The notes under the pieces: model-generated | What the model was told of the DNA's origin: nothing | What the model saw: the letters and a program-made list of their open reading frames with translations, nothing else | Databases searched by the model: none | Program-made: the position numbers and the translations under genes | DNA from: Eledone cirrhosa | Taxonomy: Eukaryota | Length of the DNA: 64,000 bases | Reading direction: 5' to 3' | Assembly (NCBI GenBank): GCA_964016885.1 | Contig: OZ024741.1 | Location: 134,230,001 to 134,294,000, forward strand | Part shown: positions 11,511 to 61,668 of the stretch, piece by piece | How the letters are laid out: every line of letters begins with the position of its first letter | Position numbering within the stretch: the first letter of the stretch is position 1

Positions 11511-13235
11511 CGTAATAACAGTCTATCACTATAAATAATAGTTGAGAAAATCGAGTAAAATACCCTTGGAAATAGAAAAGTGTATTTATTTTACCAGAAT
11601 TTTCTCAACTATTATTTATAGTGATAGACTGTTCTTACAGCTATTTTCTGCATCTAGGATGCTCTCATTTTCAAATATCAAATTCTCCTAATGTTCCGTA
11701 AAATCATACGTTAATATTTCTAAGGCCACGGAGATGAAATCGAAAGTTGTGAGGGAAGTTGTTCAAATTACATCTATTTGGAACATTATCTACTTATTAA
11801 CCTCCACAATAGAAATAATGGAATTAATGGTATTATTTGTAGCTTAAGATGTTTCCATTAACCTAATTAATTATAGTAATTAAATAATCTAAGTAATTAG
11901 ATTAAACAGTTTACGGAAAAGAATATTTATTAATAAATATAATCATTAATAAATATAATCATTGGTGGAAACGAGAGAAGTATGAGAGTCGTATTCCCTT
12001 ATCACAAGTAGCAACATAGTTTACGAGACTAGGGGTTGTATAAACCACAGTTAACATCATTCATGAATGGTTTGATATATACACTGGAATCAACATCCAA
12101 TCCAATCCAGGGTTTCTCACTCCTGTTGGACGAACTCCTCCCTGGTTGACCTCCACCGCTTTCTATTTGGTGTTGGTCATACCAAAGGTGTAGCCATATT
12201 CGCCATGCTTGGCCAATTGTACGTTGGTGAGGCTATTTAACTCATATTAAGGGTGGATGGCCATTGACTCTGCGAAGTTCATCCGCCTTTTTAACAGCAC
12301 TTGTTTTTAGTGCTGCTGGGGTTCCACTGTTTGGATTTTACACCTACCTCCCTTTTTCTAATTAACTGATATTTTAACTATAAAGTGGTGCTGGTCGTAG
12401 TTGAACATAATTTGACAGAATATCAGATAATTTGGGACATTCACAAATCAAATAGTGTTAGTTGCTTTTTATTTTTTACGTAAAACATATTGATTTATCA
12501 TCGACACAATAGTACAAACTTGTATATGTGTAGAGGTTTATTCAATTTAATCTACATCAATACATAACTGGTACTTATTTCATAAACTCCAGACTAAACT
12601 CTGTAATGCATCTTGTTCTGTGCTCTAATGTTTCTGCATGTCTACCGCTCTTTGTTTTCGTAAAATATCTTGACCAGAATGGTTTCTAGGGCTATTAGAC
12701 TTATTTAGGTCCATTGTCTTCTGTAGACAATGGGCCTAAATTTAGTGCCAACATAAATATATTTTTAAGCCTTCTGAGGATGCACATTATTAGTTACAAA
12801 AAAACTACATATCTATGTAATTTAAATATTTGCTTAAAGACGTAAGGGTTATCTCGTAACATCGTGCAAAGATTTAGCAGAAAATGTCTGTTAATTTAAA
12901 TGTTTATTCATTTAAATGTTTATAGTATTTTTACCAGTGAACAAATCAGTGAAAATCAAAAATATAAAGTAAAAGCTTTAATGTTTAATGTCATGCATTT
13001 ATAGTAATATTTTGTACTTTTCGAGAATGTCTTGTTAATGCGGTTTCATGCGGTACAGGACATTAAAAGTTAAAACGTATGATTTCAGAAACCACAATTG
13101 AGTGAGTGTTAACATAATGTAATAAGTAAAAAGTGTTTCAACTGATTAAAATTACCTTTGCAGTGAGGAAAGGAATAATATAAGCTCAAAGACCAATATT
13201 AATTTAATCCGATCGCTGAGAAGCACAGCTTCAAC

Positions 13236-13274
13236 TTCGGACATGTTTCAGTCTTATTTGAAATCATCAACGAA
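13236..13274 (-). ncRNA. Decayed hammerhead
   Basis: TTCG-TTGATGA-(weak stem II)-GAAAC-AT-GTC^CGAA. Confidence 0.45.
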
Positions 13275-13888
13275 CTCGTATACGTTTCTTGTCCATGTAT
13301 ATAGTGATCCTCTATCTCTAGGTGAAGCAAGCACTGAGGAGTTTAAGTAAAATCAAAACCTGTCCAGAGTGGCTACCAAGCTTACTTAGAATGTCTGAGT
13401 CTTAAACTTTTGTTATTGAAACTATGTTTTCTCCCTCTCCTCACTGCAAAAGCAATTTTAATTGATTGACATTATATTGTCCCCTACACATCTGGGTGCA
13501 CGAATTTGCATTACCCTTTGGGTGGCTGTGTGTGGCACAATTGCATACGGAAAAAAACGAAACACATAGGATGAACAAAAGCGTCCCTCCTCCTTATCAA
13601 CCACCCAAAGGGTAATGCAAATTCATGCACCCAGATGTGTAGGGGACAATATAATGTCAACCAATTAAACTTGCTTTTGCAGTGAGGAGAGGGAGAAAAC
13701 ATAGTTTCAATAACTAAAGTTTAATATATCTGTTTTTAGCAAGAAAGGCAACGACTCAGACATTCTAAGTAAGCTTGGTAGCCACTCTGGACAGGTTTCG
13801 ATTTTACTTAAACTCCTCAGTGCTTGCTTCACCTAGAGATAGAGGATCACTATATACATGGACAATAAACGTATACGAGTTCGTTGAT
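13267..13888. repeat. Fold-back element with arms of about 260 bp
   Basis: 13267-13524 is the reverse complement of 13601-13888, with an insertion of about 30 bp in the right arm. Confidence 0.95.
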
Positions 13889-13997
13889 TATATATATATA
13901 TATATAGTAAAAAATTGAACGGGAACAAAACAGAGAGGCAGTACGAACAAAGGTTTATTAGTTTCACGCTCTTGAGAGTGGGGTGGTGGTGGGGAAC

Positions 13998-14025
13998 GAT
14001 GTTTCGGGCATAAGCCCTTCTTCAG
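13998..14025 (-). ncRNA. Hammerhead-like core
   Basis: CTGAAGA-aGGGC-ttat-GCCC-GAAACATC. Stems I and III are poor. Confidence 0.5.
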
Positions 14026-14505
14026 GTGAAAAGTGTGTGGGAAGAGAGTTCCAAGGGTGTGTAGGGGAGTGGTGGAGAGACATATAGCAAAAAGGGGGTG
14101 AGAGGAAACGGTGCAAATGAAATATATATATATATGTGTGGGGAGGGGAAGCAGTTTGTTGTTACTGATTATTTATTGGTACCTTACTCGTATAATTCTA
14201 AGTTTTGTGGCTATTGAAACAAACTTTCATCACACACATTCAAATACAGTGTAGTTTTCTGAAAAGAAACTTAATTGTGTTAATATAGAATTGAAGTCCT
14301 ACAGATATTTTGTAACAATTTGTTTTAAACAGATCACTAATCTAATTCAAATTCTGATTGTCTTAACTTCTTGCCCAACATTACAAATTTTGGCTTCATA
14401 TTTTTTCATATTCTAATGGCTTTTAGGGTTTTTCAGAACGTTAGCATGTTATTTAGATGTATCTTGTAGTTTATAGTTAAGGCATGTTATTTAGATTAAA
14501 AAAAG

Positions 14506-14694
14506 GGCGGTGGATTGGCAGTATCGGTAGAGGGTCGGACGCCATGCTTTCCAGCATAGTTACGTCCCTTTACCATCTGAGTTCAAATCCCGCCGAGGTT
14601 GACTTTGCCTTTCATCCTTACGGGGTCGATAAAATAAAGTACCAGTAATGCACTGGTAATTGCTGGCCTTGTGCCTAAAGTAGAAACAGTTATT
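14506..14694 (+). mobile_element. tRNA-derived SINE family 1 (representative copy; more than 20 full or partial copies in the window)
   Basis: A-box tggcagtatcggtag, B-box gagttcaaatcc, central ctttcatccttacggggtcgataaaataaagtacc (Nin/Deu-like domain), tail gtagaaacaattatt. Confidence 0.85.
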
Positions 14695-15119
14695 TAGATT
14701 AATTTTGTAGCGGCTCGTTTTCTGCTTCAAACCTTGTCACTTCGGTCACAAAGCCAGGCGCTGCCGCCTGCAGTGCATAGGGGAGACAAATTGCTAAACC
14801 GTTCCTTTTTCACGCCGGTTGACATCGTGACTTCGGGTGTCTTAGGTCCCCGAACTGTCATTTTCCTTCGCAAAATCGGAAAAATGGCAGTCTGCCTAGG
14901 AAAGGAACCCGTGAGGCGGAGTGGATGTTGCAGCGGGTGTCGCTTGCCCTTCTCTGCGACAATGCCTTCACCATTTTGTCCGTAGGACACAGCTGAGAGA
15001 TACCACTCACACTGAAGTGTAGTATCTGTCACCTTCTCCCCTTCCTTTCGTTGTTTAATGTTTTCTTTCATTTTATTTCTTTTCTTTTTATGTATTAGTA
15101 TTATAAAGGTTCTTTATCC

Positions 15120-19380: not shown

Positions 19381-19447
<67 letters not shown>

Positions 19448-19822
19448 AACAAGTAAGACCCCGACGGCTGAGCTCAAGCCGTTTCGACGGCTAATTCTGA
19501 ACTCATATATATATATATATATAATTCACAAGAAAATGGGAAAAGACGACGTATGGAAGCTGTTAAAACAGCAAAATACCGTCAAAACTGCGTTGGGTAA
19601 AATGTTACCTCGAAGGACAGAGATCAGCAACTCGGTGTGAGTTGACTCGAAGGAAAGAAGAGATGATATCTAAGAAGATAGGAAGGAAGAAATTGTAATA
19701 TTTTATCCAACGTCGCTTCGACAGTATTTTGCTGTTTTAACAACTTCCATACGCCGAGTTTTTCCATTTTCCTGAGAATTCTAATACACTCGCATCTCAA
19801 CACTCGATTTTCGAGTTGATTT

Positions 19823-19862
<40 letters not shown>

Positions 19863-20025
19863 TTAGTTAGTTAGTTCCACAGCAAATTAGCAAACTATAG
19901 TCGAGAACACGTGTTTTATCCGATAGTTTCTTCAACTCTATACCGAACTCGTTCTTTGGATTGAGTGCTCTACCAGTTTCGGATATAATCTCCCGTTTTT
20001 TTACCACTATATATATATATATATA

Positions 20026-21198
20026 CTTGGGGAGGGTCATATTTGTGTAATAATATTCCCAGAATTAATAACAGAACACACTCACTGTTTGGTTGGTTTT
20101 CGCTTCTGTATCTTTTATATCAGTTAATTTAATTTATTCGGTCCATGCAGTTCTCTGGCTACAACCATAGAGACAGAATCAGAGTATACGAAGGAGTCAT
20201 GGAGAAGTATAAGACCCTCATAGAACTGGACATGAAAGGAATTTGCCCATTATACAGGAGAAAATCATGGAATAGCTTAGATAGGACTAGACATAATATA
20301 GGGAAAGCCACCTCATGGTACGACAACCAGAGATACCAGAGTGTCATGTTTGTGGACGCTACCCCTGGAGGGAAATTAGCTAACCAGTGTAGAAAGGCCC
20401 TGAGAAAGACCCACTTAAAGATTAAGGTGGTAGAAAAGCCAAGAACCACCATAAAATCCCTGATCAGCAAAACCTACCCTTTTAAGAAAACCCACTGTAC
20501 TAATAGGAAATGTATTATATGTAAAGTTAACCCCCGGATAAACTGTAAAACTAGAAACGTAGTCTATAGCATAAGATGTACAGAGGGTACTTGCAGAAAC
20601 ATGACAACAACATACATAGGCGAGACAGCTCGTGGCATAGGTGAAAGGATAGACCAACACTGGGGGGAACTAAAAGGACGAAAACACGGTTCAGTACTAT
20701 ACGAACATGTCAGACAACAACACGACGGTAACATAGACAACATAGAAATTAAAATAATATCTAAACATAGAAATGACCCAGCAGATAGACAAATCAGAGA
20801 GGCCAGCGAAATAGAACTTAGAAGGCCAAAGCTAAACAGAAAAAAATGAATGGAATAACAACAACACCCAAACAAACAATACTGACCTAAGAGAAGTATA
20901 AATAAATAAATAAATAAATACATACACAAGCACAATAACAACAAACACATATAAACACACACTAGTAAACTAAGATAGAATACAATAACCAATACACACC
21001 GTTGGTCAGTCAATAGTAACATTGGGGGCCGAATAAATTAAATTAACTGATATAAAAGATACAGAAGTGAAAACCAACCAAACAGTGAGTGTGTTCTGTT
21101 ATTAATTCTGGCAATATTATTACACAAATATGACCCTCCCCAAGTATAACAATATTTGTTTCGACACACGATTTCATATCAAAAACCTCGCAAAACTA
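20026..21198 (+). mobile_element. 5'-truncated Penelope-like element with an inverted 5' pseudo-LTR, in (TA)n
   Basis: ORF 20145-20849 has a Cys-rich linker and a GIY-YIG endonuclease. 20026-20143 is the reverse complement of about 21026-21147. Nematis/Neptune-like is a tentative clade call. Confidence 0.9.
20145..20849 (+). CDS. PLE C-terminal fragment: linker and GIY-YIG endonuclease (open 234 aa)
   Basis: CTNRKCIIC...NCKTRNVVYSIRC...YIGETARGIGERIDQH...LYEHVRQQH...REASEI...PKLN. Confidence 0.85.
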   Translation: MQFSGYNHRDRIRVYEGVMEKYKTLIELDMKGICPLYRRKSWNSLDRTRHNIGKATSWYDNQRYQSVMFVDATPGGKLANQCRKALRKTHLKIKVVEKPRTTIKSLISKTYPFKKTHCTNRKCIICKVNPRINCKTRNVVYSIRCTEGTCRNMTTTYIGETARGIGERIDQHWGELKGRKHGSVLYEHVRQQHDGNIDNIEIKIISKHRNDPADRQIREASEIELRRPKLNRKK

Positions 21199-21213
21199 AT
21201 ATATATATATATA

Positions 21214-21689
21214 TTTGGTGTGGGATGCTTAAAGCGTCCGTATGCGGTAGGCCGTTTGAACACTCGATGCTCTTACAGAGCAGAGTATAATATCACATAA
21301 GAAACGGAGAATCAGTGGTGCGACGAATTAAAATTCATTAGACATATTACAATCGTTTCTCTGCTGACCAGCTCGAACGATGCGATGATCGAACCTGACT
21401 CTGAAATCGCAAGATCCTCAGATGCGTCTCAATCTTTCGAAGCAGAGTTTCGAAATTCTGCTTCGAAAGATTGAGACGCATCTGAGGATCTTGCGATTTC
21501 AGAGTCAGGTTCGATCATCGCATCGATCGAGCTGGTCAGCAGAGAAACGATTGTAATATGTCTAATGAATTTTAATTCGTCGCACCACTGATTCTCCGTT
21601 TTTTATGTGATATTATACTCTGCTCTGTAAGAGCATCGAGTGTTCAAACGGCCTACCGCATACGGACGCTTTAAGCATCCCACACCAAA
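21214..21689. repeat. 476-bp spacerless palindrome in (TA)n
   Basis: Axis at 21451/21452 (tttc|gaaa), about 3 mismatches. Confidence 0.97.
21474..21563 (+). ncRNA. Type I hammerhead, long stem II (mirror copy 21340-21429 on -)
   Basis: AGACGCAT-CTGAGGA-TCTTGC...CAGGTTCGATC/GATCGAGCTG...GCAGA-GAAAC-GATT-GTA^ATATGTCT. Confidence 0.7.
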
Positions 21690-21785
21690 TTTATATATAT
21701 ATGTATATATATAGTGGTAAAAAAAAAACGGGAGGTTATATTCGAAACTGGTAGAGCACTCAGTCCAAAGAACAAGTTCGGTATA

Positions 21786-21825
21786 GAGTTGAAGAATCGT
21801 TCGGACGGATGAAACACGTGTTCTC
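21786..21825 (+). ncRNA. Minimal hammerhead, U3 variant
   Basis: GAG-TTGAAGA-ATCGT-tcgg-ACgGAT-GAAAC-ACGT-GTT^CTC, palindromic stem III. Confidence 0.6.
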
Positions 21826-21851
21826 GACTATAGTTTGCTAATTTCCTGTGG

Positions 21852-21895
<44 letters not shown>

Positions 21896-21899
<4 letters not shown>

Positions 21900-22250
21900 A
21901 AAAAAAGATGAAATCGAAAATGCAACTGCAGTCTTATTTTTTTTTAAATATATATATTTATTTGGTTCCTTTACCGGTTTCGCAGTTCTTCTGCTTTTCA
22001 AAAGTAGAGTTGATATAGAGGGTCTGTGGTTTTTCTTACATGTGAGAAAAACCACAGACCCTCCGTCTCAACTCTACTTTTGAAAAGCAGAACAACTGCG
22101 AAACCGGTAAAGGAACCAAATAAATATATATATATTTTTTTAAATAAGACTCCACTTGCATTTTCGATTTCATCTTTTTTTTCTTTATACTTTCACTCGT
22201 GTAGGACACCTCGGTTATTTTTCATTTTGTAAAACAAACCTGACTTTCTA
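21896..22250. mobile_element. Fold-back HHR element, axis 22040/22041
   Basis: Arms of about 145 bp plus a unique tail, in (TA)n. Second copy at 48857-49230. Confidence 0.9.
22077..22112 (+). ncRNA. Minimal hammerhead, U3-A8 variant (mirror 21969-22004 on -; family copy 48983-49018 on -)
   Basis: CTT-TTGAAAA-GCAG-aacaa-CTGC-GAAA-CCGG-TA^AAG. Confidence 0.75.
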
Positions 22251-36776: not shown

Positions 36777-39688
36777 ATACCATATTATCCGCTACACATC
36801 TTTAAATTTGAATTCTGGCTCTTCAATTAGGTATAAGCAGGTACCACAGTTTATTCTTCCGCATTTTGTAACAGTTAGGCTGGAGATTTTTTATGGGGTT
36901 TTCTTCCAGTAATTATATGTTTTAGTGTTTTGGTCTGTCTTTTACTTTTAATAATTTGTTGTGTTCCAAGAATTTTGTTCATTTTTTCATCTTCGTATAG
37001 AATTTGGAGGTTTTTGCTGAGATGGTCAAACATTTCGACATTTCTGAGGTTGACAGTTGACACATATGGTCAGGCATTGTTCCTGGTTTTGTTTTGTTTT
37101 TTGTTTTTTTTCCTTAGCTATGTCTTCCCCCTTATATTCCATTTGTGATTAGACCAAATGGAAAGTGTATTTTTCAGTTCAGCCAGTCTTTGGTCACGTT
37201 TAATCGGGTCCGATATTATTGTGCAAATTATTTTAGTTAGGTTAAAAGAAATGTTCAGTTTAGGATGTTTTGGATGGCTCAATATAAATAGGTGTTGTTT
37301 GGAGTACGTAAGTTTATAGAAAATGTCCGTTTCTGTTCGTCTGTCAATTTTTATGATTGATATATCCAAAAGGATTAGTTCATTGGGGTTAAACTCCATT
37401 GTGAATTGAATGTTGCTGTTTAGATTATTCTTGGATTTTGCGATGTATCAAGGTTTTCCCGCCGTAAGATAAAGCATTCATCCAGATATATTTTCCAGTT
37501 GTTTTCTTTTTATCTTATTTAAATTTTTCTTTTTTTTTGTGCTTGTGTCTCCAAATAGTAGTAGTGGTTGATTGTAAATCTTTTTCTCAGGAAATCCCAT
37601 GACTAAATTGACTTATGTGTGTGGGGGGGGGGGGGCGGGAGCTACCTTTGTGTCTATTGCAATTCCTGATATAAGTCGGTTCGCAGGTCTATAGAACATA
37701 AAATAGTTGTTTTGTAATATGAATCTGAGTCTATCAATGATGAAGAATTTTCAGTGTGTATCAGTAATTCGGATTGATATGTGTCTAGCCAATATTCAAT
37801 TGCAGTTATTCCAGTCATGGGAGTTGTTTGTGTATAAGTAGACAATGACGAAGGAAACAAAAAGTGAATTCATTTTCTGTTTGTTTGTTGTTGTTGTTTT
37901 TTTGCAGATGATTCAGCTTGTCTAGATCATCTCATATGTAACACTGCACATGTTTTAAGTAGGGCTTTAGAGGGATGTCCTGAATTTACTTAGTCTGTGT
38001 GTTTCACATTCAGAGTCTGCTATAATTGGTCTAATCTTTAAATCGTCTGGAGGTAGTAACTAGATGTATTTGAGTTTTGATTAAAATAAATTATTTCGTC
38101 CCCAGGAGATAAAAACATAATAGAGAAAATACGTGGGTCTGAAAAATCATCTGATTCAGTTTTTTGTTTATATAAAAAATCAATGCTCATTCCGTCTACA
38201 CCATATTTAAACTGGATGTTTAGGGTTTCACAATTTTTGGAGTCAAAATTTTATTTGATCAATCGGATCAATAGGTACAGATAATTCACTGATAGTTAAA
38301 GAGGAAGAGTAACATTTTATTTCTAAAACATTAGTTTTATAACGAAAATATTTTTCCTATTGTTATAAAGAGTCTTGTATTTAAAGACAGTTAAATTAGC
38401 TCTTAAGATTGATCTGAAGGCTTCTACATTAGAATATTTCAAATGAAGGTTTTCAGATAAAGAAGAATTAAAAAGTTTAGACTTACTACGAAGTGTCAAG
38501 CAAGTATTTGTTTATTTGTTGGTTTGTTTTTGAGGAATTCTCAAAAGTTCACTCCTACCTCTTTTATTATGTGGCAAGCTCTCAGAATTACCCGTGTTGA
38601 CACAAAGAATTTCAAGATTTTTTTCCAACCAATTATCTTCATTTTTATATAAACTTTGCCTGTGTTATCTTACTTTGTTGCAATTTTGTTTCCAGAGTAC
38701 TTAAAGATTTTTTAATCTCTGTCTATTTTTTGTCAAATTATATCAATTAAGAACCCTGCTGAATCATCATTGCGAGCTATTTTGGTTTTTCTCAAGAAGT
38801 TAAATAAATCAATATATTTCATTTCTTAAAAATGTTTATTTAATACAAAACCAACAGAACAGAAGAAATGTTATAACATTATATAAGTACTGAATATTGT
38901 GTAAATTTTATTGTCGATACTGGCATATCGCGTTATATGTTATTATTGAAACAATCATGAAACTATTATTTTGAATTTTTTAATGAGATGACATTGTATT
39001 TAGACACTATGCTTGAGTAATTTGTTAATTTTTGAACTTGTGAAAGATTTATAGGATCTGAATAAAATTACACCAATTTTAACTGGTACATACCAGTTAA
39101 ACTTGAATCTACAAAATTTTAGGGCCATTGAAAAGGTGACAAAAAGTGGCAAAAACTATGTTACTATAGATCTTTATCTATCATATTTGTTCAAAATTAT
39201 ATTTTGCTCATTTGGAACTACTCGAAATAGCAACATTTTATGTAGCGATTAACATAAAGATCGGTAATTTTCATTAAGCCAAACACATTTTTCAACTCCA
39301 AAGTAGTTAAAGTTATTTTATTTTACAGCATAACAACAATATATATATATATATAAGTGGAAGCTTAGTAAAATCGAAGCTTTGACTGTGGGAAAGCAAA
39401 GTCGACCTACAATAGCAATGAGTTAGCAAAGCACTCAATAAGTCTTAGAGTAATAACATACGTTTAAATAGCTACTATATATATATATATATAGGAAAGT
39501 GTTTAACCCCGACAGCAGAGCGCAAGCCGTTTCGACGGCTATTTCTGAACTCAGTCCAGAAATAGCCATCGAAACCGCTTGAGCTCTGCCGTCGGGGTTA
39601 AACATTTTCCTATTACCCACTCTACTACCCTAAGTATTGAGTACTCTGGTCCATCTGGTTCCTTACCACACCTCCTTCGTTATATACA

Positions 39689-39724: not shown

Positions 39725-40013
39725 CAATAAAGTATGTCCATAGAATCATTTGATAAAATATATACACCATCTCCTCTCCCAACCAGCATAATCAACCACA
39801 CACAAAACCAATTAAACCAGGCTATAAGATTAAAAGGCACCTATGAAGAAATAATAGATAAATAAACGACAGCCATCTATTCGCGATCAACAGCTATATT
39901 TACCCACCATTTCAATAGCACGTGGAAATCGATTAAATATATCGTCAACCATACACAATTAGGTATAAAATCAAAGTTAGAAGAAAAAATGTATATAAAC
40001 ATACCAAGATTAC

Positions 40014-40094
40014 GTTTCTACCCCTGGAGTTTCATTCGCTTTTGGAAATATCCGATCAAGGATAAATTCACGAGCTTCGAAATCATCAGGAAAC
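40014..40094 (-). ncRNA. Type I hammerhead, long stem II
   Basis: GTTTC-CTGATGA-tTTCG...TATCC/GGATA...CGAAt-GAAAC-TCCAGGG-GTA^GAAAC. Confidence 0.7.
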
Positions 40095-41166
40095 AAACTC
40101 ACTTGGACGAAGATTTTTCTTAAATGATCCCCGCCAGAAACGAATTCAAAATGGCTAAGAACTGTGACGTGGCAGTGGTCAAGTCAGAAAGAATATGATT
40201 GGTGCCTTACGGAGAGTGGGCTGGTTGCTAGAAAGTGCAGCCTAATATTGCCTAAATTGCATTTCAACCATATGGGAGATTATCAAATATAAAGATTTAC
40301 ATATACACAAACTAGACAAAGTCATAGATATATATATATATATATTTTAACCTGTTAGTTCTTTCGTTACTTTCGTATTGTGTGGTTGGGTTTTGCCTAC
40401 CGCAATGTTCAATTTGTCAAGCTATTTAAACGTATGTTATTACTCTAAGGACCTACCCTTATTGAGTGCTTTGCTAACTCATTCCTATTGTAGGTCGACT
40501 TTGCTTGCCCACAGCCAAAGCTTCGATTTTACTAAGCTTCCACTTGTATTATTTTCTCCTAGATTTAATAATTAACTAATTAATTTAATTAGACAATTCT
40601 GTTGATTGGTTAATTATTTGTGTTTGTTTAATAACATCTGGTTGAGAGCTTTTATTCGAAATGTTAGCGGAAATTATAATATTTCCTTTGTTAACACTTT
40701 GAACCTACCCGCCAAAAACCGGGGGTTTCTTCCCTTGTTGGAAATAACACGTGACAACTAAGTGTTCGCTGGCTGCATTCTTAGCGGCCGCATTTAGCTT
40801 GTCCACTCCGATTTATGGCAGAACAGAATCCCTGTTGATGAAATGAATCCTCTGTTCGATCATGGAATACCACGAGCGTGCGTGTTACGTAAGTTGGATA
40901 ACTGATATCGGATTCATAGAAACACTTTAAACGTATATCGTTTGATTTGTCCAGGTCTATCTTTTTAACCTGTTAGTTCTTTCGTTACTTTGGTATTGTG
41001 TGGTTGGGTTTTGCCTACTGCAATGTTCAATTTGTCAAGCAAGCTATTTAAACGTATGTTATTACTCTAAGGACCTACCTTTATTGAGTGCTTTGCTAAC
41101 TCATTCCTATTGTAGGTCGACTTTGCTTGCCCACAGCCAAAGCTTCGATTTTACTAAGCTTCCACT

Positions 41167-41219
<53 letters not shown>

Positions 41220-42321: not shown

Positions 42322-42659
42322 AGTATGTTTTGAAAAAAAAATATATATATATATATATAGTAAGTATGTTTTGAAAATATATATATATATATATATATTT
42401 CCAGGGAGTGTAATGTGATATTACTGTAGGTTCACCCAGGTGAGCACTCGATGTTTAGGTTCACGTCAGTGGCGAGGTGTAGAGCTAGACAGAGTGTAAT
42501 ATAATAATATAACAAGGATGATTTGTTAAGCCTTCATTACGTTTATTGATTGGTGACGCGCGTTTCGCTATTGATCAGCTCAAGGTTCGGTCTGTATCGA
42601 TATGGCCTAACTCTGGAATCAAAAGCTCGTCGGACCTCTGCTGTTGTAATGACACCAGA

Positions 42660-42744
42660 GGTCCGACGAGCTTTTGATTCCAGAATTGAGCCAGATCGAT
42701 ACAGATCGAACTTTTAGCTGATCAATAGCGAAACGCGCGTCACC
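42660..42744 (+). ncRNA. Type I hammerhead, CCGACGA core, long stem II (mirror copy 42552-42636 on -)
   Basis: GGT-CCGACGA-GCTTTTGAT...ATCAATAGC-GAAAC-GCGC-GTC^ACC. Confidence 0.75.
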
Positions 42745-42879
42745 AATCAATAAACGCAATGAAGGCTTAACAAATCGTCCTTGTTATATTATACATATAT
42801 ATATATATCATCATCATCATCATCACCGTTTAACATCCATTTTACCATATATATATGTGTGTGCGTAAATACATATTTA

Positions 42880-44471: not shown

Positions 44472-44807
44472 GGTATCAGGATTGGTGCTCTGAATAGCGA
44501 TGTATACATGAATGTATGTATAGTATATTTGGCAATATACCGTATGTTTAATTAAAAACATTTTGAAGACCATACGCTATCTGTTTTAAAGTAGTGACTA
44601 TGTCACTTACTTCTTTTCTTCTATTCTACACATATATTCCATAGCTATAGACTATGCACATATTCTATCTGTCTATTCTGCATGTCTATTCCATATTTAT
44701 ATACTGAAGAATACATGAAGAACAGACAAAAAATTTTCTATCGGGTTAATCACTACCTTGATTAAATCTTAACCATTTAACATCTCAGGGTATGTCATGT
44801 ATCATTA

Positions 44808-44862
44808 TATTTTGTCTGATGAGGACGTACTGTTGTACATCCGAAATATGTATAATAAAATG
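44808..44862 (+). ncRNA. Type I hammerhead ribozyme (canonical core)
   Basis: Stem I TATTTTGT/ATAAAATG, CTGATGA, stem II GGACGTAC-tgtt-GTACATCC, GAAA, self-complementary TATGTA, AUA cleavage after 44854. Confidence 0.85.
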
Positions 44863-45000
44863 TAATTGATCAAAAGAACATCTATTTTATTAATAATTAT
44901 ATTTTAATATTAATAACTCCAGAAAATTATTTTCCGTTGAGTGCTTCCAATCTACTGTAAAACTCATTCTTTGACATAATCATTGAATATTGTTTAACAA

Positions 45001-45070
<70 letters not shown>

Positions 45071-45075
<5 letters not shown>

Positions 45076-47969
45076 GTTATGCAAGAAATGCTTAGGATTA
45101 TCCTGAATGCAGTAATGGTTAATTACTACACTAGATAGAGTTGACGTACGGTGAGGGGTTACTCAATGAGTAATGGATCAGTTTCTGATCCTTCTGTATT
45201 CCGGAGTGTAGATAAAGAATGAATAATAACAGGTAGACATCATAAAAAGGTCATTTATTCCGAGTGCTTACAAATGTTTCAAAAGAGGTTATACAGCCTA
45301 GTCATGCTATGTGCAAATTGGTAATTATTTGCAGAAACTCAATTTTCAAATGCTGCTTCTACCGTTTCCTCAGAGCAGATTGGTTAAAATGTGAATACCC
45401 TTGTATTTCTTAAAGGAAGTTATTGGAGAAGATAGAGTAGAAAAGGAAGAGAAAGAGAAGGGGAGGGAGAGAGAGATATGTAGGGGTTGGAGAAATGGGA
45501 GAGAGTGGTTTGAAGAACACAGATATCTTAATCAAAATGTTGTGATAGGGGTTTTATTATACTGCTTACTCTCAAAGTGACAACCTTAGGCGGTGTGTTG
45601 ATATAGTTAAGGTTGGAATTATTTATTGCCACAGAGAGCAGGTTCATGTGGAGAGGGGGGAGGTAGACCGAGGGCGAGAGAGAGGGGAAGAGAGGAAGAA
45701 AGAGAGATAGAGAGGGGACAGACGAAAGCTACGAGATGAGGGTACATGGAGTCCATAGTTGTAGTCTACAAATCGCACTTAAGTATCCATTTATAATGAT
45801 AAGCAGGGTATTGTCTTGTAGTGTGGGGTGGGGGATATAGTTTGGAAGTAGTTAGCGAGAAAGCGATGTTATAGTCTCGGGTTCGAATGTTAAGTTATTT
45901 TATAGTGAGAGAATTTAGCCTTCAGTTTGTGGTTGCAGTATAGTGATCGTTCGATTCTGTCATTTAGTAATTTATTTTTGGATTTTAAGATGTAAAAGAG
46001 TTCAAGGTTGCATAATCTGCAGTACTTCAATCCACTCCGATATGCACTAGCACTGGAAAGTTTATCCCATTTCAAGGTAAACCTCCGGTTGCATTCTCGG
46101 AGTTGCCGGGTCTTATTGTCGAGCGTAGTCACAAGACGGTGATTAGGATGTTTAATCGAGAATTGATGACGATACCAGCAAGATTTAAAGGAGGTAGTGG
46201 TAGACCCGATGTAATACCATTTCTGATCGTTCGATTCGACAGTACATTGATAAACAATGTTGGACTCTAGGCATTTATTCTTCAATGGGCATCTTTCGGG
46301 TAGGTGGCAGTTGCAGTTTTTGTTGTGGGTAGAGGTATACCATGGATAGGTTGGGATAACAGTTCAGGTGGGTTGTGTAGTACCCGTCTCCCATTTGGTG
46401 GTTGGGAGGCCGATACTACGTTATGCTCATCTTAAGTTTTTTTATGTATGCAGTGGAGTATGATAGCTTTTATGGTGCAGTGGAGTATGATAGCTTAATA
46501 GTCTTAGAGTTTAGAATCTTACTATATTTATGGGAACTAGTGAAATGCTTGTTAATTAACTTAAAGAATGAAAGAGATAGTTTTGTACTAATCGAAACAT
46601 TAAAAATGGGATTATACCAGATATACGTGATTTATTTGGTGATGATTTTCTATTATTAGTATGTCTGGTGGTACTGCGTGTGTGCGCTTGTATTTCTGTA
46701 CCCCGGTTATATATTCTTTGATTTCGTGTAGAGCTATGTGTGTTATGGAGATTCTTATCAATGTATTCTATTTTATCCCGGTGGTCTGCATTCCTTAATG
46801 CATTATTATAGTATTCAGCATGTTCACTGAAAATCTCAGAGTTAGACGATAGGCGAGAGATTCTGTGAGAAATAACCGATTTGATCATGGAAAGTGGGTG
46901 GTTTGAGTTAAAATTGATATAGGTAAGGTTCTCATTTATCTTGTGGAAGGGTCGTATCATTCCGGTATTCAAATTAAGAGTTACGTCTAGAAAATTTACC
47001 ACTTTAAGATTGTATTCGTACGTTATTTTTAGACCCAGTTCACTAAAGGATTTTCTAATGTTTTTCCGTAGCCTTTCAAGATTTTGGTTATTTAAGTTAT
47101 TAACTAATAAAAGCGCGTCATCTCTATATATTCCCCCCTCTAGATTACTAAATTTTCCATGTAGTATGTGGGCTATGTAAATTCCCACGAGATCAGTGAC
47201 CTCGCTGAGTCGTTGGAGCCCATGGTGATGTCGAAGTTTGTGGGTCTGTCCCTACGTTCCCAGTAGCAGTTATCAAACTTGATAATAGTTTTTCTAGCCT
47301 CTAGAATAATATTAATTTCGTCCTCCGTTAGGTCGGAATTGACTTTGGCAAACGATAGGGCCTTACGTAAAGTACTGGGTGAGATTGAACCGTAGTATTC
47401 GTCTATGTCGAATTGTATAAACTTAGACTTATTCTTGTTCTTAACGTTATTAAACCAGCGAATTGCTTCGCTAGTGTTGCCCCATAATTTAATTTCTATT
47501 TTCTTTTTTAATTGAGTTATTACTCTGTCAAGTATATGTTTGCTAGTTTTTCCTATGTCTGATTTAGAAGGGCATATAAGTCTAATCTTAGGGTTAGAGT
47601 CAAAATTTACCTTATGGTCCTTCAGGTTAAAGGTGGGGGTTGCGGGTATAATCAGCTCGGTTCTATCGTCTATCTTGAGATTCTTCACTACTTTGTATGC
47701 TTCGTTGTTAATGTTCGTTAGTGTAGTGTCACTTGTTTTTCTATATTTCTTATGTAGTTCTTTGCGTATGAAGCTGTTGTATGTATCGATATCCATGGTA
47801 TACACGTTAGAGGTCTTATCAGCTTTCACAAAATCCCATTGGTATTTTGCAGTCTTCGGAGTAGTGTTTTCATGTTGTTCTGCAGCTCATTACTTCTATG
47901 TTTGGTAAATTTGATTAAGATATCTGTATTCTTCAAACCACTCTCTTCCATTTCTCCAACCCCTACATA

Positions 47970-48006
<37 letters not shown>

Positions 48007-48262
48007 ATCTCCCCTTCTTTTTCTCTTCCTTTTCTACTCTATCTTCCCCAATAACTTCCTTTAAGAAATACAAGAGTATTTACATTTTAACCATTCTGCT
48101 CTGAGGAAACGGTAGAAGAAGCATTTGAAAATTGAATTTCTGCAAATAATTACCAATTTGCACATAGCGTGACTTGACTGTATAACCACTGTTGAAACAT
48201 TTGTAAGCACTCGGAATAAATTACCTTTTTATGATGTCTACTTGTTATTATTCATTCTTTAT
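45071..48262 (-). mobile_element. Penelope-like element (RT plus C-terminal GIY-YIG, Hydra-clade-like) with an inverted pseudo-LTR
   Basis: Frameshifted ORFs 47173-47829 (KADKT, FIQFDIDEYY, MGS), 46556-47188 (YRDD, FLDVT) and 45890-46285 (IVY..YIG, C-terminal CRLC...CNH). About 45212-45536 is repeated inverted at about 47910-48262. (TA)n on both sides. Confidence 0.92.
48097..48209 (+). ncRNA. Hammerhead in the PLE pseudo-LTR with a stem II region of about 85 nt (second copy 45265-45377 on -)
   Basis: TGCT-CTGAGGA-AACGGT...ACTGTT-GAAAC-ATTT-GTA^AGCA, then AATAAA. Confidence 0.7.
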
Positions 48263-48416
48263 ATATATATATATATATATAAATGTAATCTGAGTTTTTC
48301 GAATATTAATAATAACATTCGATTCGTTTGCAATTATGCAAACAAGCCTCATTTTTAAGGCCATGTCAGAAGAATGAACCCTTCATTCTTGCTCTTGTGT
48401 TGGCATGTAAACATAA

Positions 48417-48460
48417 CTGCAGACACTAATGTTTCTGGGTATCACCCTTCATCAGTACAG
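48417..48460 (-). ncRNA. Type I hammerhead ribozyme
   Basis: CTGTA-CTGATGA-aGGGT-gat-ACCCa-GAAAC-ATTAGT-GTC^TGCAG. The first stem II pair is an A.A mismatch. Confidence 0.7.
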
Positions 48461-48810
48461 CTCACTGTTCACCTGCCAACTGTCAGAGCTAGTGAAAATA
48501 TATGCTATTTTCTAAAATATAGTGACTGATTGGCCTGATTTGCATATTAGCAGACTGGCCGATCAGTCAGATCTGCATATTAGCAGATCCACTGATCAGC
48601 TAGATTTGTATATCAGCAGACTGGCCAGTCAGGAAACTAACTGGCCAGTCTGCTGATATTGTATTTATTATATTCAGCCATGTAGAGCGAAAAATATTTT
48701 ATATATATATATATGTCTACACACACACATACATATATATTCTACAAGCATATTCCATGATTATATATTATACACATATTCTATATGAACGTACATTCTA
48801 CATGTATATT

Positions 48811-48862
<52 letters not shown>

Positions 48863-49318
48863 GTGAGGTTTTTTTTACAAAATGAAAAAAAATGAGGTGT
48901 CCTACACGAGTGAAAGTATAAGGAAAAAAGATGAAATCGAAAATGCAACTGGAGTCTTTTTTTTAATATATTTATTTGGTTCCTTTACCGGTTTCGCAGT
49001 TCTTGTGCTTTTCAAAAGTAGAATTGAGATGGAGGGTTTGTGGTTTTTCTCACATCTGGTTGGTGTTCGAATGTTACTTGTTTTATATGGAAAAAAAGTG
49101 GCTCGAAATGCTAGGTTTTTAGAGAAGTAAATCCATCTCAATCCTACTTTTGAAAAGCACAAGAACAAATAAATTTTTTTTTTTTTTAAAAGACTCCAGT
49201 TGCATGTTCGATTTCATCTTTTTTCCTTTTATATATATATATGTTATACACATATTCTATATGTCTATTCTACACATACATTCCATATTTATATACTATA
49301 CATGCCTTCTTTTATTAG

Positions 49319-54590: not shown

Positions 54591-54646
54591 ACCGTAACTG
54601 AATATTCTTATATAAAATCATGCTGGAAGCTTTTGTTATATATAGT

Positions 54647-57089: not shown

Positions 57090-57585
57090 TATATCATCTA
57101 GAAATTGATTGACATATATATATATATTTAAAATAAACGCATGCAACAATCACAGTGGATAATTTGTAAAGTGTGTAAACACACAAGCTAGGTAGGTAAC
57201 TAAATAAAGTTTAACTAGATCTTCAAATATTACTTTTAAGAAATGATTAATCCTCCTTGTATATATTTCATTAAAGAAATATATTTCACTAAAAATCTGC
57301 AAAATCACAGCAGTTAAATCCCAGATCATCAGCAAGGAGGAAGAAATAACTGTCTGTGTTTACGCATCAAATACAAATCTGCGAGAGACCCGTCGCACGT
57401 GCAGCAATTCTAAAACTACTAACAACATGCTAGCGAAAAGGGAATATTTGAAGATCTAGTTAAACTTTAATTAGTTACCTACCTAGCTGTGTGTGTTTAC
57501 ACACTTTACAAATTATCCCCTGTGATTGTTTCATCTGTTTATTTTAAATATATATATATATGTCAATGAATTTCTAGATGATATA
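57090..57585. repeat. Fold-back element (arms about 140 bp), related to the hairpin at 56788-56891
   Basis: 57090-57230 is the reverse complement of 57443-57585. Confidence 0.9.
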
Positions 57586-58823
57586 AAATGCTCGGATCTA
57601 TTCATTGGAATCTTTGAGCTTATTCTACAGTGGATATGGCGCATGTCTCGGATATGACTCCTTTAATTTAATCTATTTCGGATATATCTTTGATTATATT
57701 AATTATTCACTATTGCATTCAAAGTTCTTGCATAAAACTTCCAATGGTTTATATATTGATGGATCGATGTAGCAATTTTGAAGCATAGTAACTTCCTCAC
57801 CCATACATAATATTTATATTTAGTTGAGCACCCTTTAGTTGTGAGAAGGGTATGATGATTTACACAATAAAAGCACCCAATATATGCTGTAAAGTAGTTG
57901 ATGATAGAAAGGGCATCCAGCTGTAGAAAACTTGCCAAAAAAGGTGATGGGATGACCCTTCAGTTTGTGTCAAAATACACAACTTCTTTTCTACACTCGA
58001 TAGAATGTATGACCATATGTAAGCAGGATGCAGACCCCCTCAATCTGTCTGGGAGATCAGTAGCCCCACTTCAGTATTGACTTGGTCTATGTAGACCCAT
58101 CCAACCCTTGTTAGCAGGGAAAGTAGACATTAAATGATGATGATGATGATGATGATGATGTTTAAAGCTGGCATAGTAACCTCCTCAACCATACATAATA
58201 TGTATGTTCACATAGACACACATGTGTCTACATCTCTGAATATATATATACAAGTATGGAAAGGAATGGACCTTCTTTGGTTTCAATGATGAATGTTCCA
58301 GTTATTTGATCAATGGAACAGCCTGCTCATAAAGTTGATGTGTTAGTGACTGAGCATTCTACAGACTTATGTGCCTTTAATATAATTCTCAGAGATATTC
58401 CACTTGACACAGTATGTAAAAGGACTAAACCCTTTGAATTATAGGTATAGTCTATTTGACAGGCTTCTAAACATTTTCTTTCTACCCAATTTCACTCACA
58501 AAGCATATGTTGAGCTATGACAATGGTAATGACACTTGCCCAAGATACCACAAAGTGGAGTCGAACCTGGGACTTAATGATTGCAAAGCAAACTCCTTAA
58601 CCATTCAGCCATACTGCATCAACTTACAAGTATACAGATTTATGTATCTTCTTGACAAAAGGCAACTGTTAAATAATATTATTTTTATCTATTTTAGATA
58701 AATTTGCTAGATTTATTACATTTGTATAATTATTAACAAAGCAAAAACAATTATTTTTCAGTTTTCAGAGGCTTTGAAACTTAATGGGGAAATTAAAAAG
58801 TCTTTTCTTTTCTTTTCTTCTAG

Positions 58824-58946
58824 ACTACAGAGGTTCCAAAATTTAAAGGAAAAATTAAAAACTTTATTGAAGAGACAACTGGTCAAATATTTGAAAAAGC
58901 CACATTTCAGCAAGCTATACAATCTTGTGAAGAGCCAACTCAGTGA
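58824..58946 (+). CDS. Terminal exon D of the LamG protein gene
   Basis: Long polypyrimidine tract ending ctag. Phase 0 reading TTEVPKFKGKIKNFIEETTGQIFEKATFQQAIQSCEEPTQ*; FKGKIKNF sits where LamG has FxGCIxx. AATAAA at about 59219. Confidence 0.75.
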   Translation, partial: TTEVPKFKGKIKNFIEETTGQIFEKATFQQAIQSCEEPTQ

Positions 58947-59373
58947 GCAACCACTGGCAAAAATGGTGAAGAAAGGGAAAAATATTTTGTCTGAATAATA
59001 CATTTATCTCAATACAAAGAAAGGACGCCTAAGTTTTAATGATTCATAAAACAAACCATCATCTGTTTTCAAACAACATCTTTGTGATTCTTTCTTCTCT
59101 AATTAATACCATAACTTCACACTCCAGGTTAACACAGTTACATATTCATCTTTCAAGCATGCAAAACAGAGACACAATACCAGTCACATTGCCACATTTA
59201 ATAATTTGGCTCCGATAAAATAAATAATGATGATAATTTTGTATTTTGGTTAAAGGGAAACACACAAAAGTATTAATTCTTCAACACATACACATGCACA
59301 CATACCTAAACGTGTGTGAGTTTTTTTTATATATATGTGTGTATATATGAGTATATATATATGGGTGTATATA

Positions 59374-59404
<31 letters not shown>

Positions 59405-59456
59405 ACACACACATATATATATATATGCACAAATATATATACACATACACTCATAC

Positions 59457-59487
<31 letters not shown>

Positions 59488-60831
59488 GTGTGGACTGGGC
59501 ACTTTTGACGTGGTACCAAAATGACCACTTTACCATGTGGACTGGGTGACATATATATATAGTATATGCTACATGTATATTGGTTAACTGGCATTCAGAT
59601 TTTGCCAAACCAACACCTAATTCATCCATACATATATATGTGTGTTGTGTGTATGTTTCCTATTTTACCAGAAGTACATTTAATATTGTTTTTAGTTTTC
59701 TTTCACAATTGATATCTTATTTAGTTATTATGAAACTATTTTCTATAATATGGAAACATTCAGGGATCTCATTAGTTGTTTGAAGAAATTTATTTTCTTT
59801 CAGTTTTTTAATATTTCGAATTTTGAATGTTTTTTTTTTGTTTTGTTTTTTCTTCTATTATTTTATTTCACAGCTATAATACCTGAATACATAACAAGGG
59901 TTTACGGTCTTTTTTACCCTGCTAAATCAGGGGTTACCCTTAAAGTCCTCATGCCAGGCATCATACTGATCATGGTGTCCTTTTTGAAGCAATATCTTAC
60001 AGCCAAATGCCCTTTCTAGTTCCAACTCGTTTAGTCATCTTTTACAACACACAAGGATATGGTGTATCTATTCTAAACTGGATACACACAGTAGAGCTAA
60101 ACACTAAATATATTTTCATCAAAATTTAATTCAGTTTTAAGCTGGAATATGGCAGACTTGAATTTTGCTTCATTTTATTGTCAATTTAAGATTATCAATC
60201 TCCAAACTTCATCATAATTTGGAGGTATTTCAAACAAATATTGAATTTATTAGAGATGGAATTAAAGTCCATTTTCTAAATGTTCTCCTAGAAAAATAAT
60301 ATAAAGTCCAAACCCAACAAAACAGACTCTCTATCAGTTCTATGTTTCAAACTACAAATTCCTTTCAATATTAAAGTTTCAATTTGTTAAGAGTCAGGGA
60401 GTCCGTCTTACAGCTTTAGGTGCCTTAATTTTGACATACACTTCACTCACTTAACGTATGTATCCTGTTTTATAAATGTGTGTACCTATTTTTATATACA
60501 ACCAAACAGCTATACATACAAGCTAAAGCAGCTGTATATATTTGTAAACTCCTACGACATATACATACATGCATGCAGCACACACATGCACACAAATACA
60601 CACATACATATACATACATATGTGTATATATATATATATACATATAGGAATAAAATATTTGACTGTGAGCTCCTAAGGTTTCTGCTGAAACCATAGGTGC
60701 TCAGGGTGGAATATTTTCTACCTAAATATACCAACTCTGCTTAACACTGAAAACACTCCATATATATATATATATATATATATATGTTTATATATATATA
60801 TATATATACAAACATATATATATACACAACT

Positions 60832-60868
<37 letters not shown>

Positions 60869-60962
60869 TGCAGAGGTTATATTTAATTTGTTGGGATTCA
60901 ACAAGCTTAAAAATTTTATAACTGATATAAAGCACTCAACAATTTAGTGGAGTAAATATACA

Positions 60963-61277
60963 ATATATTAATAAATGGAAACTATATTTATAAAACCATA
61001 ATTATTTTATTATATATATTTCAAGGGCGACCAAGGTAAATTATGGTGCGCTTTCATCAGATAAAATACAGATTTGTTTTATAAATAAATATTGACATAC
61101 CCAGAAAAAAGACAACCTCAACCGTTGAGGTTGTCTTTTTTCCGGGTATGTCAACATTTATTTATAAAATAAATCTATATTTTATCTGATGAAAGCGCGC
61201 CATAATTTACCTTGGTCGCCTTTATATAATAAAATAATTATGGTTTTATAAATATAGTTTCCATTTATTAATATATC
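60963..61277. repeat. Fold-back element, axis about 61123
   Basis: Arms of about 155 bp, inside (TA)n. Confidence 0.92.
61003..61068 (-). ncRNA. Type I hammerhead ribozyme
   Basis: TATTTTAT-CTGATGA-AAGCGCACC...GGTCGCCCTT-GAAA-TATATA-TA^ATAAAATA. Perfect 8-bp stem I. Confidence 0.8.
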
Positions 61278-61668
61278 GTATATATATATATATATATTTT
61301 TTTTTATTTATATATATATACATACATTTATATATATTTATATATTTGTATATATATGTGAATATTTTTATATATATAAATATATGTATATATATATATA
61401 TATATATATGCATATATATATATATATATATATGCATATATATATATGCATATATATATATATATATATGCATATTTATATATATATATATATATATATG
61501 CATATATATATATATATGCATATTTATATGCATATATATATGCATATAGTAATTATAATAAAGGTGAAGACTAAAATCCGGAGAGGGCTTGAAAGAATCG
61601 CTGCTTTCATCCTTAACGGGATCTTCTGAAATTTTAATCTGTTATTTTAATTAATATATATATATATA

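Follow-up and report, generated by a model that had tools for sequence, protein, structure and literature searches.

Islands and elements in the window

The window, a 64-kb stretch of Eledone cirrhosa DNA, holds fold-backs, single copies and truncated Penelope-like elements (PLEs) of many families (Table 1). Many of its islands had been described as ORF-less, hammerhead-bearing and mutually unrelated in sequence. Two ORF-bearing elements were overlooked in that account (20133-20849 and 45890-47886), and the islands are not all unrelated: those at 22077 and 48983 belong to the same family, and the hammerheads of families F and G align.

Table 1. Islands and elements of the window, with position, strand and structural details
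Feature	Position	Strand	Details
Family I, old fold-back	13150..13891	-	arms 13263-13528 / 13598-13891; decayed hammerhead, core 13270, cut ~13240
Family K, single copy	13905..14110	-	core 14025, cut ~13998; stem I 2 bp in relatives too
Family N, short copy	19446..19505	-	starts at fixed site within hammerhead loop II; extra G (19504) precedes
Family A, fold-back	19862..21862	.	arms 19862-20010 (-) and 21710-21862 (+); core 21789, cut 21822
Element B, 5'-truncated PLE	20022..21200	+	GIY-YIG frame 20133-20849; inverted 5' arm
Family C, perfect fold-back	21201..21702	.	cores 21482 (+), 21421 (-); stem II span 55 nt
Family H, fold-back	21893..22250	.	U3-A8 core variant at 22080 (+), 22001 (-)
Family N, fold-back	39491..39682	.	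both arms from fixed site; one non-templated base between, 39552; tail on right arm only
Family L	39725..40320	-	core 40089, cut 40019; stem II span 49 nt
Family D, fold-back	42399..42792	.	C4 core variant at 42663 (+), 42633 (-); stem II span 60 nt; tail on left arm only
Family F, single copy, young family	44730..45005	+	core 44816, cut 44854
Element E, 5'-truncated RT+GIY-YIG PLE	45073..48265	-	frames 47886-45890; DKT and CxCx5C motifs
Family J	48285..48660	-	core 48455, cut 48422
Family H, second fold-back	48836..49231	-	core 49015, cut 48986
Family G, fold-back	60870..61260	.	core 61060 (-), cut 61011

Elements B and C lie in the (TA)n that separates the arms of family A. The linker of element B is of CX2-5CxxC type and Neptune-like, and its hammerhead is deleted in the window copy and present in another copy, L143. 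Element E has one core in its 3' pseudo-LTR (45373) and another in an inverted 5' copy (48101, plus strand; stem II span 86 nt). Family G is young, with at least 40 copies identical across 105 nt; only 3 diverged relatives of family I were found, too few to rebuild its fold by comparison. Family N, which is very abundant, had also been overlooked, and its short copies hold only half a hammerhead. A search of the other window fold-backs (19520-19783, 39339-41183, 56788-56891 and 57089-57586) found no hammerhead.

Hammerhead folds and coding parents

A type I descriptor (core YYGANRA, a 3-8 pair, an optional extra base at stem II, stem II span of at most 100 nt) was tuned on the window and then applied unchanged to held-out genome stretches, 40 pieces of ten kb at round coordinates (400 kb). 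The window has 13 folds, against a mean of 0.75 and a maximum of 4 in 100 local dinucleotide shuffles, and the held-out 400 kb has 42, against 3.8 (maximum 7; 30 shuffles); the enrichment over shuffled controls on which the original prediction depended is present in both. Extrapolating from the held-out density of 1.05 per 10 kb (0.63-1.55) gives roughly 1.6-4.4 x 10^5 folds genome-wide. The proposed frequency of about one hammerhead per 5 kb holds for the window if both arms are counted, but not for the genome sample. Nine of the eleven sites put forward pass the descriptor (21474, 21786, 22077, 40014, 42660, 44808, 48417, 48983 and 61003); in the window copies at the other two, stem II is broken (13236, in family I, whose 3' end lacks (TA)n) or stem I has 2 bp and stem III is changed (13998). 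The Rfam hammerhead models gave 0 matches in the window at gathering score, and MFE folding of the candidates was a poor discriminator, with z only -2.2 to +1.1 and the active fold often missed. The islands contain true hammerhead-ribozyme folds with putative self-cleavage.

The proposed setting of the folds stood up in most respects. (TA)4 occurs within 300 nt downstream at 11 of the 12 window sites checked, the exception being 13236, and insertion in (TA)n was seen for 33/42 held-out folds against a background of 29%. AATAAA follows within 150 nt at 7/12 sites (background 22%), but two of these signals sit in stem I and two share one family. The inverted duplications are real: their arms differ by 2-10% and their outer ends are unlike, which excludes an assembly or read artefact.

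Among the best-scoring 30 loci of thousands per family, the fold is intact in 29/29 loci of G, 22/24 of F, 23/24 of H, 17/28 of C and 11/29 of D. Stem covariation was found in the F/G group: in an alignment of 25 homologs, hand-picked from ~100 collected, pairing is 92.8%, both partners have changed in 8/9 stem II pairs, and 0-1/500 shuffles match four of the five measures. For family L, which has a long stem II, the seven aligned rows give weak covariation only. Stem II domains span 49-86 nt in several families; the full family N fold, built by hand, fails the descriptor at stem II. The palindromic stem III suggests that any cutting would occur as a dimer.

Walking 5' from the copies covered C, F, G, N, D and H and reached a GIY-YIG frame ~1.7 kb upstream in C, an RT+EN parent ~1.5 kb upstream in F, an EN parent ~1.35 kb upstream in G, and RT and GIY-YIG frames in N; no frame was reached within ~1.2 kb in D or ~0.66 kb in H. 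The parent frames of B and E lie in the window itself. Translations and tblastn show a single ORF, RT then GIY-YIG, in E, F, G and N, and the endonuclease alone in C and B. Pfam gave no match for 7 ORF fragments. In the ESM Atlas, an RT-domain cluster was among the neighbours. By the Hydra-clade definitions (PMC8557442), the RT motifs are RWK and DKT in E and RWR and DKT in N, and the CxCx5C linker, with CxxC and CxH around the conserved E and N residues, is present in C, E and F and degenerate in the G copy read. The parents are mostly of Hydra-clade motif type; the linker of B differs, so not all families are Hydra.

In full-length copies the pseudo-LTR, made up of the hammerhead and, after it, two AT-rich end points separated by 80-105 nt, passes directly into the 5' UTR and the start codon; a pseudo-LTR in direct orientation was joined to the ORF start at 13/30 E loci and 4/30 N loci, in each case among the best 30 of thousands. 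The Penelope-like origin, type I hammerheads, (TA)n targets and inverted 5' copies of the original prediction are supported, and the ORF-bearing parents for which it had advised a search were found for six families, two of them within the window. A non-autonomous, gene-less radiation is not supported, since C, F, G, N, B and E have frame-bearing parents. Its alternative wording, extreme truncation, comes nearer, but the truncation is not of the ordinary random kind, because the 5' ends lie at one site per family. Whether such elements were already catalogued had been left undecided; the kind, at least, is known from a Hydra family of Octopus bimaculoides with a hammerhead (Craig 2021, PMC8557442).

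Fixed 5' ends and head-to-head junctions

Short copies end 3' at one of two AT-rich points and 5' at one pyrimidine-A site per family; every such 5' boundary, or wall, consists of an A preceded by a pyrimidine. A single fixed start is shared by most copies in five families. The C, G and D samples were chosen by 3' sequence only, as 27 independent loci each from the best 30 of thousands. In C, 21/27 5' ends fall at -91 to -123 from the cut and 4 are longer (19/27 under a stricter pairing rule); in G, 13/27 fall at -130 to -133 and 6 are longer (12/27 under the stricter rule); in D, 22/27 fall at -84 to -113 and none is longer. For H, 24/25 ends lie within 8 nt in a query-biased sample. The walls are placed, relative to the cut, at -132 in G, -71 in H, -115 in C and -103/-95 in D. 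Genome-wide, 43,005 exact arms of family N reach +4, 29,081 reach +1 and 12,688 reach -3, the last count being partly lowered by upstream subfamily variation. The walls of C and D are 15-30 nt wide, copies of C decay slowly upstream of the wall, and families F and E have staggered ends and no single wall. The wall lies 20-83 nt upstream of the fold in C, D, G and H and within loop II in N. Relative to the ribozyme cut, 0/136 arms start there and 123/136 span it. At one locus, 257-nt units that extend from the fixed site into the opening codons of the ORF are repeated in tandem.

Head-to-head arrangements make up 21/27, 17/27 and 14/27 loci in three samples. The paired arms usually end at different end points, one internal priming site each, and the tail of 80-105 nt is on exactly one arm in 46/52 pairs. 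At N junctions at the wall, the one-base spacer is G:C in 522/601 cases, the template carrying T at that position; this non-templated G:C is found on either arm and in several subfamilies. At the +3/+4 junction, used as a control, 50/50 among those listed of 641 are templated A:T. These control joins are microhomology joins, a comparison that does not separate copying of a cap from the ordinary addition of a terminal base, which can occur whatever the RNA end. Among the first 50 of 99 two-base N spacers, CG occurs 5 times and GC 0, and AG/CT 7 times and GA/TC once, as expected of the polarity. An excess of plus-strand C among the first N junctions disappeared in whole counts (279 vs 243). In single-armed N copies fused directly to (TA)n, the base ahead of the wall shows no excess of G (T 85, C 8, G 7 in the first 100 of 577). 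In family G there are only 3 two-base junctions, and G precedes the wall in 5/14 cases vs a templated C in 6; N is the only family for which the extra-G test is informative.

These ends bear on how the palindromes form. Self-priming on an antisense transcript, put forward for the head-to-head palindromes of rotifer Penelope elements (PMC3846280), is very improbable here: the arms end at two sense-strand priming points, one each, the junctions are perfect with a one-base non-templated spacer and no fold-back loop left, and the 5' ends agree with a sense initiator-like site. An origin at the DNA level, as MITE-like palindromic transposons or as solo repeats left by recombination, is largely refuted and hardly credible. 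Perfect inverted arms do look like terminal inverted repeats, and rotifer solo pseudo-LTRs have been attributed to recombination or deletion (PMC3846280), yet the outer ends are asymmetric, with a tail on one arm, arm lengths differ by locus, many copies are single-armed, and the sequence runs on into RT/EN frames.

Copying from the 3' end with ordinary 5' truncation, and with an RT stall hot spot at RNA structure near the hammerhead, would fit the staggered ends in F and E and walls 20-85 nt from the core, and truncation with inverted 5' copies is the standard PLE pattern (PMC8557442). We regard it as quite unlikely, given that wall position relative to the fold varies by family and that a stall leaves the non-templated G:C and the pyrimidine-A context unexplained.

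The islands are instead probably short pseudo-LTR copies of many EN-bearing PLE families, mostly strong-stop-like cDNAs made from the 5' end of uncut, likely capped sense RNA. They are likely to be front-end run-off copies because their 5' ends are fixed and, in one family, frequently carry an additional G. Transcription would start at each family's fixed pyrimidine-A site; the RT-endonuclease would cut a (TA)n tract on both strands, and the resulting DNA ends would each prime at one of two internal sites. When priming falls in the 5' pseudo-LTR, the cDNA would hit the first RNA base after 60-280 nt, run-off would often add a single C, seen as G, and head-to-head joining of the two cDNAs would follow; longer, randomly truncated copies would come from priming in the 3' pseudo-LTR. 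The Penelope start site and internal promoter lie within the pseudo-LTR (PMC2377424), and cutting and extension of both DNA strands, two internal RT start sites and uncut RNA as the main substrate have been reported in vitro (PMC11167929). The hammerhead is conserved in the source elements, and its cleavage is not needed for making short copies.

Self-propagating non-autonomous families, that is, solo pseudo-LTRs with an internal promoter that start at the same site and are re-copied in trans in SINE-like fashion, would predict an identical wall and extra G. The Penelope promoter is internal (PMC2377424), pseudo-LTRs suffice for mobilisation in trans (PMC3846280), short copies greatly outnumber long ones, and the D and H walks reached no frame. 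This reading is nevertheless unlikely in view of the frame-bearing parents in six families, the existence of long copies for the two main variants of N and for the two of G, fold-backs that arise anew per subfamily with variable arms, and the inclusion of the first ORF codons in one tandem unit.

Relation to known elements and significance

A near precedent for a short cDNA of fixed length is the minus-strand strong-stop DNA of LTR retroelements, in which priming near the RNA 5' end is followed by run-off at the cap. Unlike that DNA, the short product here involves no tRNA primer or strand transfer and would be target-primed and integrated as is. Variants of PLE hammerheads are reportedly covered by Lunse et al. 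2017 and could include long stem II or C4 forms.

Hammerhead ends lying in (TA)n, whether solo or head-to-head, have already been described (Cervera 2014, PMC4209133; Craig 2021, PMC8557442). Like the C-terminal EN+ PLEs of the Hydra clade, including Hydra-1_Obim (PMC8557442), the elements here have RT then GIY-YIG, DKT and RWK-type motifs, the CxCx5C linker and CxxC/CxH around catalytic E and N, (TA)n targets, partial pseudo-LTR tandems, inverted 5' copies, an optional tail, and a hammerhead near the 3' end with an extra base on either side of stem II. They differ from the clade as presented there in comprising many families, not one, in 3' UTRs of up to 1.3-1.7 kb, in tails of 80-105 nt against 30-40, in stem II spans of 49-86 nt against the 3-10 nt loops of its Hydra table, and in fixed 5' ends of short copies, which that paper does not describe. 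The minimal type I hammerheads of metazoan PLEs (PMC4209133) are likewise mostly single motifs, ascribed to truncated PLEs, and share opposite-strand pairs 100-700 bp apart, a palindromic stem III, the U3-A8 core variant and an extra base before stem II; the account given there has thousands per genome, against an estimated 10^5 range here, and its pertinent parts do not feature long stem II domains, the C4 core (D) or a start site in loop II (N). Poseidon of Anolis carolinensis, studied in vitro (Frangieh et al. 2024, PMC11167929), also has two strands cut and extended, two internal RT sites bounding the tail, and uncut RNA as the main template. That work concerns one protein in vitro, and its corresponding sections describe neither genomic 5' pseudo-LTR run-off copies nor a pairing of strand with site; the ORF starts within the hammerhead in Poseidon and ~200 nt past the cut here.

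Animal non-LTR retrozymes (PMC7229834; bioRxiv 10.64898/2026.07.22.740005) resemble the islands in being short, non-coding, PLE-derived and of very high copy, with a type I hammerhead. Retrozymes, however, are head-to-tail arrays of whole hammerheads processed at the cut, whereas the copies here extend across the cut, occur singly or in head-to-head pairs and can be traced to coding parents. No array of the retrozyme type was found in the window, the sampled copies are single or head-to-head, and the one tandem examined lacks half the hammerhead core. Retrozyme membership was rejected, as unit ends are not set by the cut (0/136 arms).

We did not find in print 5' ends piled at one pyrimidine-A site per family, head-to-head N junctions with non-templated G:C, two arms using the two internal priming sites, or a set of arms none of which starts from the cut. 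The origin of PLE tandem and inverted structures has been called open (PMC8557442), and an antisense template has been proposed (PMC3846280). With somewhat better than even confidence, we propose that a PLE strong-stop pathway (twin TPRT, two internal 5' pseudo-LTR sites, capped sense RNA) inserts promoter-plus-hammerhead palindromes into (TA)n tracts by the hundreds of thousands, thereby recording each family's start and cap and settling the template strand of the palindromes, with one family starting inside an enlarged loop so that its 5' ribozyme copy stays incomplete. The constant 5' ends, the additional G:C and the rule of one site per arm yield base-level predictions for the existing in vitro system.

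Although the genome is far smaller than that of the axolotl, the estimated number of folds would surpass the 126,247 hammerhead motifs reported there (PMC7229834). Descriptors with a 7-17 nt spacer would miss long stem II domains, and the main text of a 2026 repeat annotation of Octopus vulgaris does not mention hammerheads. Dense palindromes of 60-250 bp may contribute to the exceptional levels of double-stranded RNA and hyper-editing reported for octopus (PMC5625713).

Hammerhead folds and their coding parents

Rfam hammerhead models gave zero matches in the window (G000:C2:134230001-134294000 of the 3.0-Gb assembly) at gathering score; a strict first descriptor found five distinct folds and one weak match there. 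After each site had been viewed, the descriptor was relaxed to admit a 3-8 core pair and one additional base flanking stem II on either side; it then found 13 folds in the window, compared with a mean of 0.75 (maximum 4) over 100 block-wise shuffles (500 nt). Because it had been tuned on the window, it was applied unchanged to 40 ten-kb stretches at round coordinates, which held 42 folds vs. 3.8 in shuffles (maximum 7 in 30 shuffles). Core halves lay >30 nt apart in 17 of these folds vs. 2.8 in shuffles, and (TA)4 occurred ≤250 nt downstream in 33 of the 42 vs. a 29% background. The original prediction of hammerheads in the (TA)n-bounded islands holds against shuffled controls, and nine of its 11 sites pass the descriptor; those at 13236 and 13998 fail. 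Fold density was 1.05 per 10 kb (0.63–1.55, bootstrap over the 40 stretches), giving about 1.6–4.4 × 10^5 folds genome-wide, a rough estimate because 21 of the 40 stretches have no fold.

The expected stem covariation among copies was found in the group of Penelope-like element (PLE) families F and G. In 25 homologs hand-picked to span subfamilies from about 100 collected by BLAST, with near-identical rows and low-complexity matches removed, 92.8% of pairs were kept and both sides had changed in eight of nine stem II pairs. Columns 26 and 56 of this alignment (A1) form a constant stem II mismatch with an invariant 5′-side C, possibly a tertiary contact. Covariation support was weak in family L, which has a long stem II (7 rows).

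Each island belongs to a dispersed family with about 1,000–3,500 first-look candidates. The predicted ORF-bearing PLE parents were sought by walking 5′ from copies of families C, F, G, N, D and H: longer C copies have about 1.7 kb of non-coding sequence and then a GIY-YIG frame, and F, G and N lead to RT/EN frames. No frame was found within about 1.2 kb for D or 0.66 kb for H. Elements B and E carry coding frames in the window itself; B is Neptune-like, and E's own terminal repeat bears the long-stem-II fold. Hydra-clade motifs (as given by Craig et al. 2021) are present in C, E, F, G and N. At 13 of 30 E loci and 4 of 30 N loci, full-length copies have the direct pseudo-LTR leading straight into the 5′ UTR and on to the start codon.

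Other features of the window and related loci

Features beside the hammerhead islands (window positions unless a locus is named)
Feature	Position	Strand
(TA)n-bounded fold-backs, no hammerhead found	414-668; 19520-19783; 39339-41183; 56788-56891; 57089-57586	
Family N fold-back, outside the originally predicted interval	1256-1368	
Presumed LINE-like coding fragment, by motif; no Pfam match	2290-2706	
Presumed LINE-like coding fragment, by motif; no Pfam match	54030-54617	-
SINE-like repeat, abundant (about 30 copies)	e.g., 14508-14696; 22858-23036	
Families B and C nested inside (TA)n between two family A arms	19807-21921	
48-bp minisatellite, 37 copies; 587-codon open frame as by-product	51186-52964	
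Short AG-flanked stretch, reads like a host coding exon	58820-58950	+
Tandem 257-nt family N units, from the N wall (defined below) through tail and 5′ UTR to the ORF's first codons	L418 (G000:C1:27009200-27011000), 317-970	

The exon-like stretch suggests that the region is intronic. Insertions of the SINE-like repeat into PLE copies often share the same AT-rich points. The fold-backs lacking hammerheads may belong to families that, like N, have copies starting 3′ of the core. The L418 array contains half a hammerhead only, and is retrozyme-like without a whole ribozyme. At loci L025 and L093, family C is joined without (TA)n to another PLE family's coding region, once upstream and once downstream; with a similar join at L007, these are possible template switches between families. 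In octopus and bobtail squid Naiad consensus 3′ ends (PMC8557442 File S5), a GAAA box lies upstream of a CUGANGA box; read by eye, the box order in these 'half-core' Naiads would be that of a permuted hammerhead.

Fixed 5′ ends and inverted junctions

For C, G and D, queries comprised only the 3′ part of the family, so that copy length was not selected, and the furthest 5′ end was taken per locus; these samples exclude window copies and duplicate loci. In five families the 5′ ends cluster at one site, the wall. Relative to the predicted cleavage site, C ends at −91 to −123 in 21 of 27 loci (19 under a stricter pairing rule), G at −130 to −133 in 13 of 27 with six longer (12 under the stricter rule), and D at −84 to −113 in 22 of 27 with none longer. 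In H, 24 of 25 copies end within a span of 8 nt, at the point where the query itself began. F and E had no single wall among the 5′ ends sampled. Family N, which the original prediction missed, starts inside loop II of its own hammerhead: exact arms number 43,005 at +4, 29,081 at +1 and 12,688 at −3, the last partly lowered by subfamily variation. The predicted cut is the start of 0 of 136 arms and is spanned by 123.

The base at each wall is A preceded by a pyrimidine, which we take to resemble the initiator consensus. In Penelope, the start site, Inr and internal promoter all lie within the pseudo-LTR (PMC2377424).

The extra-base test was clean in family N only. Its wall has 601 exact head-to-head junctions with a one-base spacer, of which 522 are G:C where the template has T; the extra G falls about equally on the tailed and untailed arm, in several subfamilies (15 loci read). 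At the +3/+4 control junction the base was templated in all of the first 50 of 641. Two-base spacers, hand-counted in the first 50 of 99, were AA/TT 13, GG/CC 10, AG/CT 7, GT/AC 6, CG 5, AT 4, CA/TG 2, TA 2, GA/TC 1 and GC 0. A tail is present on exactly one arm in 46 of 52 head-to-head pairs. The walls, junctions and tails are observed in the DNA.

Proposed priming near the transcript 5′ end

For Poseidon of Anolis carolinensis in vitro, target strands are both cut and extended, reverse transcription has two internal start sites, and the main substrate is uncut RNA (Frangieh et al. 2024, PMC11167929). From the DNA pattern we infer a transcription start site, a cap, an order of priming and ribozyme cleavage. 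If the full-length transcript begins in the upstream pseudo-LTR, internal start sites would also lie near its 5′ end; priming there, then run-off at the first base, would explain the wall, extra base and short lengths, and priming of each target strand at a different one of the two sites would explain the asymmetric palindromes. Evidence against comes from single-armed N copies that abut (TA)n directly: among 100 listed, the base before the wall is T in 85, C in 8 and G in 7, with no excess of G. Short transcripts of solo copies, a less likely alternative, would give an identical wall. Self-priming on antisense RNA was tentatively proposed for the palindromes by Arkhipova et al. 2013 (PMC3846280).

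The island design is of a known kind: Cervera and De la Pena 2014 (PMC4209133) attribute single minimal hammerheads to truncated PLEs and describe opposite-strand pairs 100–700 bp apart and a U3-A8 core, and Craig et al. 2021 (PMC8557442) describe copies that are truncated or inverted, their tails and a preference for (TA)n, with Hydra-1_Obim in File S1 and its hammerhead in File S2. The giant squid genome paper gives 235 Rfam hammerheads; the main text of the 2026 O. vulgaris repeat annotation does not mention them. The open-access literature searched yielded no description of fixed 5′ ends, a non-templated G or strong-stop copies in PLEs, nor of an octopus hammerhead census. The islands are real and their anatomy is of a known kind; what appears new here is their scale, the long-stem-II folds and the fixed-start signature.
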